Shown piece after piece: positions 43,288 through 44,030 of a stretch of 64,000 bases of DNA. The position numbers were made by a program, and so were the translations under genes. The first letter of the stretch is position 1. Each line of letters begins with the position of its first letter. The DNA is taken from the sequence record PV654397.1, one strand, 5' to 3'. This stretch comes from Escherichia phage WPEC5. The notes under the pieces are model-generated. The model was not told the DNA's origin and ran no database searches. It worked only from the letters and a program-made list of their open reading frames with translations.

Positions 43288-43546
43288 ATAATCTCCTAGT
43301 GAAAAAAGCCAGATTCTTTCTTATATATTCGGCGACACAATCAGTAGTTTGTGTATTTGTGAATGCAACAACTTCATTCGATACACCATTCCCATTACAC
43401 AATGGACAAATCCCCATATACTTAGGTGTTGGAACTGTATCTAGTTTATATTTCCCTGAAGATATCATGTATTGTTGTGGTAATACATCCAAAGAAATAA
43501 TATAATCTTCATCGAATTGCTTACAACATACCCAACATTTACTCAT
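43268..43546 (-). CDS. hypothetical Cys-rich protein
   Basis: 92-aa ORF with CWVCC and CPLC motifs. Confidence 0.5.
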   Translation of the reverse strand: MSKCWVCCKQFDEDYIISLDVLPQQYMISSGKYKLDTVPTPKYMGICPLCNGNGVSNEVVAFTNTQTTDCVAEYIRKNLAFFTRRLYERENL

Positions 43547-44030
43547 TGTGGTTCTCCTTCAAAACAATTCTTATATCTTCGAATGTTTTAACAAACCAGT
43601 CATGTTCATCAGATACATCAACCACCTTCCCACCATAAACATAGTAATGATAGAAGGGTAACTTACTTTTCCTCAATCGTTCAGCAAGTTCTGGGTTTTG
43701 AAATATCTTAGCACATATTGCATCCTGGATACGAGAAATGCATTCGGGTGTCATTTCAATACGGTCGTGCATATACTTGTTCGCCGCTGCTTTTGCAGCA
43801 GCACCCGACACTTTTCTAAGATCATCATGTTTCTGGCCTGTTAAAAACCAAAAATAAAAAGTTTCTACCGATGGGAACCAACCATATGGTTCTAAGGTAA
43901 AACTATGTGAAGAAAAGTTAGATAGATCCCTACCTAACTTAGTCTTAGCTTTACTATAGATATTAATATGTCTGTATCCATCATCAGTAGGGTCAATATA
44001 GTTAAATGACTCTTCAGGAAATTCAAACAT
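43539..44030 (-). CDS. NADAR-domain protein (YbiA/DUF1768-like)
   Basis: segments LSNFSSHSFTLE, FPSVETFYFWFL and KVSGAAAKAAANK align with recalled YbiA motifs (FSNF, SEHYFQA-KF, SP-EA-R-GR). Confidence 0.6.
   Translation of the reverse strand: MFEFPEESFNYIDPTDDGYRHINIYSKAKTKLGRDLSNFSSHSFTLEPYGWFPSVETFYFWFLTGQKHDDLRKVSGAAAKAAANKYMHDRIEMTPECISRIQDAICAKIFQNPELAERLRKSKLPFYHYYVYGGKVVDVSDEHDWFVKTFEDIRIVLKENHNE

Follow-up and report, generated by a model that had tools for sequence, protein, structure and literature searches.

A diverged NADAR-fold protein of Escherichia phage WPEC5 and its possible role in countering DarT1-type ADP-ribosylation

Four families of NADAR proteins are told apart by a charged residue of the C-terminal strand (PMC11543638, PMC11125620, PMC12945103), which is Glu in YbiA and the general NADARs, Asp in the DarT1-linked DarG1 (BC4488) and His in the phage protein gp30.3 (PMC11543638, PMC11125620). 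All NADAR families tested so far remove ADP-ribose (ADPr) from ADP-ribosylated guanine (G-ADPr), and the His- and Asp-types are guanine-specific, leaving the thymine and cytosine adducts (T-ADPr and C-ADPr) untouched (PMC11125620, PMC12945103). The catalytic Glu (Pn E43, EcC7 E88, T4 E36) is located where the core helix starts. A Lys seven residues further on (Glu+7; Pn K50, EcC7 K95, T4 K43) coordinates the diphosphate (PMC11543638, PMC11825919). Recent work has shown that phage NADARs act as orphan 'antitoxins' and overcome the DarTG1 defence, the evidence coming from three proteins of two Pfam-recognisable families (PMC11825919); guanine-ADPr DNA glycohydrolase activity together with phage rescue on DarTG1 hosts is on record for the T4, Bas32 and Bas60 proteins only (PMC11825919, PMC11125620). 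The T4 protein gp30.3 (AdfN-T4) is both required and enough for the growth of T4 and T2 on DarTG1 hosts, strips ADP-ribose from DNA in vitro and is weakened by each of the substitutions E36A and K43A (PMC11825919). Here, a 163-aa protein encoded by Escherichia phage WPEC5 was compared with these systems. Its gene lies in a 64,000-nt stretch of the sequence record PV654397.1, the whole of which is called the window below.

When searched as a single sequence, the 163-aa protein matched no Pfam or NCBIfam model even at E<=10, gave no meaningful phmmer match to the PDB and matched none of the PADLOC defence models, and its placement in PHROGs (phrog_652 at 3e-45 and phrog_11222 at 2e-31) led to two groups of unknown function. 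A collection of 5.8 billion proteins yielded 29 homologues with a strongly conserved alignment core, and 0/29 carried a Pfam NADAR domain. The profile built from these 29 proteins matched two solved NADAR structures, 8BAU (Phytophthora NADAR with ADP-ribose; E 2.3e-4) and 2B3W (E. coli YbiA; E 7e-4), whereas 8BAT (G. lovleyi DarG1-type NADAR) was reached only at E 0.75. By hhalign, the family aligned with YbiA alone at 94% probability, and an alignment of 176 sequences representing the wider clade aligned with the gp30.3 family (T4 gp30.3 and 107 full-length relatives, all with PF08010; n=108) at 96.9% probability (E 1.8e-10) over 156 columns, nearly the full length. Because the family profile matches solved NADARs and hhalign pairs the family with YbiA at 94%, it is established that the 163-aa protein has the NADAR fold and is a diverged member of the NADAR superfamily. 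The blank single-sequence searches were rejected as evidence to the contrary, as the profile and structure methods agree. Within the clade, the Pfam models stay below their gathering scores: PF08719 was matched sub-threshold by 4 of 30 members (best E 0.024) and PF08010 by 8 of 30 (best E 4.9e-4), as against 4.6e-71 for T4 gp30.3 itself. An earlier note on this DNA had proposed the NADAR family from the letters alone, and this call is borne out by the family profile and the profile-profile alignments. The profile check that it recommended was negative for the single sequence in Pfam and positive for the family-profile and profile-profile searches; the note had taken a missing profile match as grounds for giving up the assignment, so the single sequence by itself would have led to the wrong rejection of a NADAR protein.

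The two motifs quoted in that note, LSNFSSHSFTLE (residues 36-47) and FPSVETFYFWFL (residues 52-63), are present in the protein and are core NADAR motifs, with FSNF and SEHYF of YbiA aligning to LSNF and VETFY. Residue conservation was counted over the 176 clade representatives (Table 1). In the SNF motif, S37 is kept in 156/176, N38 in 172/176 and F39 in 167/176; F39 is the likely base-stacking aromatic, judging from the motif spacing, by which it would correspond to W71 of SCO5665 (PMC12945103). E56 aligns with E36 of T4 AdfN (108/108 in the gp30.3 family), with E48 of YbiA and with the Glu of PnNADAR. K80 aligns with the conserved Lys of 'AVAKKLGR' in PnNADAR and of the gp30.3 family (95/108), and it is probably equivalent to EcC7 K115 and SCO5665 K117. 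H128 aligns column for column with H123 of T4 AdfN (108/108) and sits in the 'LVEH' strand of YbiA. The earlier note had made its reading depend on conserved catalytic residues: E56, K80, H128 and SNF hardly vary in the clade, but the Glu+7 Lys is not conserved, the position being L63 here. Other basic residues may take the place of this phosphate-binding Lys, the clade-conserved K27, R34 and K80 being the candidates.

Of the described systems, AdfN-T4 resembles the WPEC5 protein in being a stand-alone protein of about 150-160 aa from a large E. coli myovirus, with the same fold family and a near end-to-end alignment. Both have the SNF motif, the Lys of AK-x-x-G, a catalytic Glu (E56 = E36) and the subfamily-defining His (H128 = H123) with a Gly five residues after it. 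The two differ in that they share only about 17-24% identity, the PF08010 threshold is reached by gp30.3 relatives but not by the 163-aa protein, the Glu+7 Lys (T4 K43) is absent here, a YbiA-like N-terminal DG..HINIYSK strand is kept in the clade but absent in T4, and the clade of the 163-aa protein is frequently multidomain. YbiA (PDB 2B3W; PF08719 NADAR/DUF1768) is further away, with 17% identity and no PF08719 match. Its catalytic Glu (LVEH) is replaced by the His of an HYY motif, the C-terminal segment aligns only with gaps, and neither its C-terminal D-x-x-W-G-x-G nor its Glu+7 Lys has a counterpart in the 163-aa protein; moreover, YbiA is cellular and linked to the LexA regulon, whereas the 163-aa protein is viral. 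DarG1 (BC4488-type, PDB 8BAT) differs in its setting, as no DarT toxin adjoins the 163-aa gene, and in its active site, in which His stands here in place of the catalytic Asp (EcC7 D171) and the equivalent of K95 is absent. There is no PADLOC match, and the N-terminal beta1-beta2-alpha1 extension is missing, about 20 residues preceding the first core strand in the phage protein.

AdfN-Bas60 and AdfN-Bas32 are orphan coliphage NADARs that restore replication on DarTG1 hosts, the role proposed here (PMC11825919). AdfN-Bas60 (bas60_0111) was considered as a member of the clade and rejected, being a canonical PF08719 protein (E 3.5e-36) with the PADLOC assignment PDC-M42C and hhalign probabilities of only 8-23%; it is therefore an independent recruitment. 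About 20 kb from AdfN-Bas60, the Bas60/PaulScherrer genome (locus L010, 9888-12103) holds in a row a 'putative macrodomain protein', a 'putative phosphoribosyltransferase' and a gene for a HAD-like protein. This is one more NAD/ADPr cluster, here in a phage whose anti-DarTG1 NADAR has been validated.

The open reading frame (ORF) of 163 aa reported in the earlier note is genuine and is read from ATG to TAA on the minus strand, which the note had left unstated. Compared with its about 86%-identical orthologue in ph0011, it shows 61.5 synonymous and 16.5 non-synonymous differences, corresponding to a synonymous rate (dS) of 1.46, a non-synonymous rate (dN) of 0.043 and a dN/dS of 0.03, which marks it as a real gene on which purifying selection acts strongly. 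The gene is conserved across 33 related jumbo-phage genomes. The window belongs to a jumbo E. coli myovirus of the Asteriusvirus kind; its DNA is 99.7% identical to that of phage BF17 (4 kb compared), and CMSTMSU, PBECO4 and 121Q are relatives. In GenBank, the orthologue of Turkey3 (XMR01337.1) already bears the name 'NADAR domain-containing protein', and nearly all other records read 'hypothetical'. The orthologue in CMSTMSU (MH494197.1, ~217904-218245) looks interrupted or frameshifted: the tblastn match, with 76.5% identity, covers residues 1-115 only, and the record matches at a second place too, although the flanking DNA is 98.3% identical; the interruption may reflect a sequence error or a pseudogene.

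A hidden Markov model (HMM) search of 1.84 billion cluster representatives (50% identity) returned 2,094 proteins at E<=1e-3, of which 1,655 reached E<=1e-10, and tblastn placed homologues in 515 phage records, including Asteriusvirus, RaK2, CBB, Ackermannviridae (Vi01, Cba120, Det7), Erwinia and Vibrio jumbo phages, and others. A set of ~185,000 species-representative cellular genomes yielded only 12 loci, each of them within a phage-like gene array. The clade is almost exclusively viral, and a toxin-antitoxin-type pairing in bacteria was rejected from the context of these 12 loci, none of which has DarT. The 163-aa gene represents a third, very large branch of viral NADARs with one unusual active-site feature, the absent Glu+7 Lys. 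Many clade members are multidomain proteins that also carry DUF4326, YpsA/YAcAr SLOG, Macro, DUF488-N3a, a second canonical NADAR or Metallophos, and the genes adjoining clade members encode AAA_28 (twice), DUF488-N3a, Thg1, CTP_transf_like and, once, an ADPrib_exo_Tox ADP-ribosyltransferase (ART). These NAD/ADP-ribose network architectures of jumbo phages and other viruses have already been catalogued computationally (PMC7824862, PMC9503650), so the domain assignment for this clade is not new in principle. One metagenomic protein, P0120 (1,415 aa), combines a canonical Pfam NADAR (aa 10-143), a clade-type NADAR (aa 547-698) and DUF4326 (aa 1185-1274), and the presence of two NADAR types in one polypeptide argues for non-redundant specificities.

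The analysis shows the fold, the homology to YbiA, PnNADAR and T4 AdfN, the conservation of the active site, the purifying selection and the viral distribution. As to function, we propose that the protein is a stand-alone, catalytically competent N-glycosidase of the phage His-type (gp30.3/AdfN-like) NADAR lineage. During infection of E. coli, it would hydrolyse the N-glycosidic bond by which ADP-ribose is held on the N2 of guanine in the phage's DNA, removing the marks set by a DarT1-type ADP-ribosyltransferase of the DarTG1 defence and allowing replication to proceed. In favour of this, the NADAR families tested all act on G-ADPr, the His- and Asp-types on guanine alone (PMC11125620, PMC12945103). 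Both the substrate, guanine-ADPr on DNA, and the anti-DarTG1 role are what we infer from the analogy with AdfN, and a probability of about 0.5 is given to the protein being an AdfN-like guanine-ADP-ribose glycohydrolase that counters DarT1.

Several points weigh against this proposal. The Glu+7 Lys occurs in only 16/176 clade representatives, the position being occupied by S, L, G, K or A, compared with 104/108 in the gp30.3 family, and K95 of the E. coli C7 NADAR (DarG1) is essential (PMC11543638). The residue equivalences are themselves deduced from profile alignments. SLOG, DUF4326, Macro and AAA_28/NadR-like partners have been argued to indicate the processing of soluble ADPr derivatives (PMC9503650). 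In the homologue neighbourhoods examined, no DarT-like toxin was paired with the domain, and no experimental work on any clade member was found in the literature; the one Asteriusvirus paper with a mention of DarTG says nothing of a NADAR (PMC11895373). Finally, outside infection neither YbiA nor T4 gp30.3 gives rescue from DarT1 toxicity (PMC11125620, PMC11825919), so that activity on G-ADPr in vitro is no guarantee of protection in vivo.

The main rival is an N-glycosidase that acts on soluble ADP-ribose small molecules rather than on DNA adducts, for which the candidate substrates are cyclic ADP-ribose (cADPR)-type or other ADPr-derived immune signals or toxins and intermediates of NAD salvage; such an enzyme would blunt host immunity based on NAD/ADPr or feed NAD recycling. 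Iyer et al. made this proposal from the SLOG, DUF4326 and Macro associations, and it draws on the whole set of domains fused to or adjoining the clade (YpsA/YAcAr SLOG, DUF4326, Macro, DUF488-N3a, Metallophos, AAA_28 of the NadR-type kinase family and CTP_transf_like of the NMNAT type), while the missing phosphate-binding Lys could mean a different pose of the ligand. We consider it doubtful, although it is the foremost of the alternatives, as every phage NADAR tested works on DNA with guanine-ADPr and counters DarTG1 (PMC11825919), no phage NADAR has been shown to use a soluble substrate, and the 163-aa protein stands alone like AdfN-T4 with no partner domain encoded in the window. A related and similarly tentative idea is that the lineage is no DarT1 countermeasure and has a new substrate, be it ADPr linked to a base in another way, an adduct on RNA or a soluble immune signal derived from ADPr; together with the SLOG, DUF4326, DUF488 and Macro domains to which its members are often fused, it would then form a novel anti-defence pathway of jumbo phages and Ackermannviridae.

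It appears unlikely that the protein reverses or tunes the ADP-ribosylation made by a phage-encoded ART, or by a host ART other than DarT1 that acts on RNA or DNA (ScARP- or YarT-like). A 392-aa ADPrib_exo_Tox/ART gene does lie 65 nt from the homologue P0019 on a 117-kb metagenomic phage contig (L011, 6500-7678), but it is convergent and not co-operonic, is of the protein-targeting exotoxin type and was seen in one examined neighbourhood only. This proximity recalls T4, in which the gp30.3 gene is ~3 kb from alt; NADARs and ARTs are co-expressed early in T4-like phages (PMC9503650), and NADARs also remove G-ADPr from RNA (PMC12945103); against this, no ART stands beside the gene in the window, the whole phage genome not having been screened for ARTs. 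Least probable is a YbiA-like metabolic N-glycosidase that detoxifies intermediates of the riboflavin pathway, or a non-catalytic binder of ADP-ribose. The Glu that defines YbiA is His here, as in the gp30.3-type enzymes, a riboflavin role makes little sense in a lytic phage, and the almost exclusively viral clade left only the 12 loci in the ~185,000 species genomes; that E56, H128, K80 and SNF are conserved almost absolutely speaks for catalysis.

The branch occurs in Asteriusvirus, in RaK2-like and CBB-like phages, in Ackermannviridae and in jumbo phages of Erwinia and Vibrio, and several of these phages are candidates for therapy. If the AdfN-like enzyme proposed here is active against DarT1, resistance to DarTG1 would be far commoner among large phages than annotation suggests, with a bearing on host-range prediction; if it shows no activity on G-ADPr DNA, the clade would point to a new ADP-ribose-related substrate. 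The natural loss of an 'essential' Lys also offers a test of the NADAR catalytic mechanism. The finding is of moderate interest, relevant to the host range of large phages yet unsurprising to a specialist.

Table 1. Features of the NADAR gene and its surroundings in the window
Feature	Position	Strand	Remarks
NADAR-fold gene, 163 aa	43539..44030	minus	ATG 44030..44028, TAA 43541..43539
Codons L36-S37-N38-F39, 'SNF' core motif	43914..43925	minus	aligns to YbiA FSNF and T4 AdfN LSNF
Codon GAA, E56, predicted catalytic or distal-ribose-coordinating Glu	43863..43865	minus	invariant, 176/176
Codon TTA, L63, Glu+7 position of the phosphate-binding Lys in characterised NADARs	43842..43844	minus	
Codon AAA, K80, Lys of G-x-x-AK-x-x-G motif	43791..43793	minus	175/176
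Codon CAT, H128 (HYY motif), subfamily-defining, start of C-terminal beta-hairpin	43647..43649	minus	174/176
Initiation context of NADAR gene	44031..44044	minus	purine-rich GAAGAAGAG 44044..44036; upstream TAA 44035..44033, 2 nt before ATG
Co-directional six-gene unit	43051..45544	minus	195 aa, 194 aa, 117-aa membrane protein, NADAR, 92-aa Cys-rich, 78 aa; overlaps or 2-nt gaps
117-aa protein, two hydrophobic segments	44033-44386	minus	directly upstream of NADAR
92-aa Cys-rich protein	43268-43546	minus	translationally coupled to NADAR gene
LemA-like gene, 184 aa	45592..46146	minus	74% identical in RaK2, 49% in CBB
Perfect 9-bp-stem hairpin (5 GC pairs) with T-run	45563-45583	minus	in 47-nt gap between LemA-like gene and 195-aa ORF
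Sigma70-like promoter TTGACA-17-TATAAT (12/12)	42965..42937	minus	just downstream of the unit
Sigma70-like promoter TGGACA-17-TATAAT (11/12)	43043..43015	minus	just downstream of the unit

The surroundings of the gene agree with the setting among small Cys-rich and membrane proteins that had been noticed before: the 117-aa protein upstream has hydrophobic membrane-like segments, the 92-aa protein downstream carries CxxCC...CxxC, and a hydrophobic 68-aa ORF lies beyond. The stop codon of the NADAR gene overlaps the start of the 92-aa gene (ATGAGTAA). This 92-aa protein is called 'DNA primase/helicase' in the annotation of fEgEco12 and has no Pfam match; as an obligate partner it was rejected, being absent beside the RaK2 and CBB orthologues. 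The 117-aa protein adjoins the NADAR gene also in RaK2 (48% identity) and CBB (26%), and the order of LemA, then the 117-aa membrane protein and the NADAR is kept in both. Its homologue is labelled 'WWE domain' in ph0011 (OP557969), a label that, if real, would make it a partner that binds ADP-ribose, but Pfam does not bear the label out, showing no WWE at E<=0.1 and only a sub-threshold DUF6097 (E 0.003). In Pectobacterium phage CBB (L016, 1869-2501), an HNH endonuclease gene is placed exactly between the 117-aa homologue and the NADAR gene and ends at the start codon of the latter.

Among the neighbours in the window, Pfam gave no ART or DarT match, and none is annotated in the relatives; a local HMM search of the window gave no NADAR paralogue and no separate DUF4326, SLOG or Macro gene. 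Upstream of the six-gene unit, the LemA-like gene overlaps a gene for a 364-aa membrane protein (45592-47237, minus strand), beyond which the relatives carry a 'toxic anion resistance (TelA-like)' gene and a gene whose annotation varies between DNA polymerase III epsilon, DUF5051 and peptidase. The hairpin upstream of the unit is a plausible intrinsic terminator or unit boundary. No convincing promoter was found by the scan directly upstream of the unit, and the number of sigma70-like sites in the scan was not above that in shuffled sequences (37 vs 32.3 +/- 4.4).

The region just downstream of the unit (42907-43065) contains a 78-bp tandem duplication (67-nt core, 96% identical) with one near-consensus minus-strand promoter in each copy. 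The odd 68-aa ORF (42810..43016), in which MLLLSLTVPQG is repeated, owes its existence to the duplication. Here, the sequences of the close relatives Turkey3, WPEC3, vB_Ec-M-J and TH47 align in two pieces and are ~77-78 bp shorter, and they probably carry a single copy.
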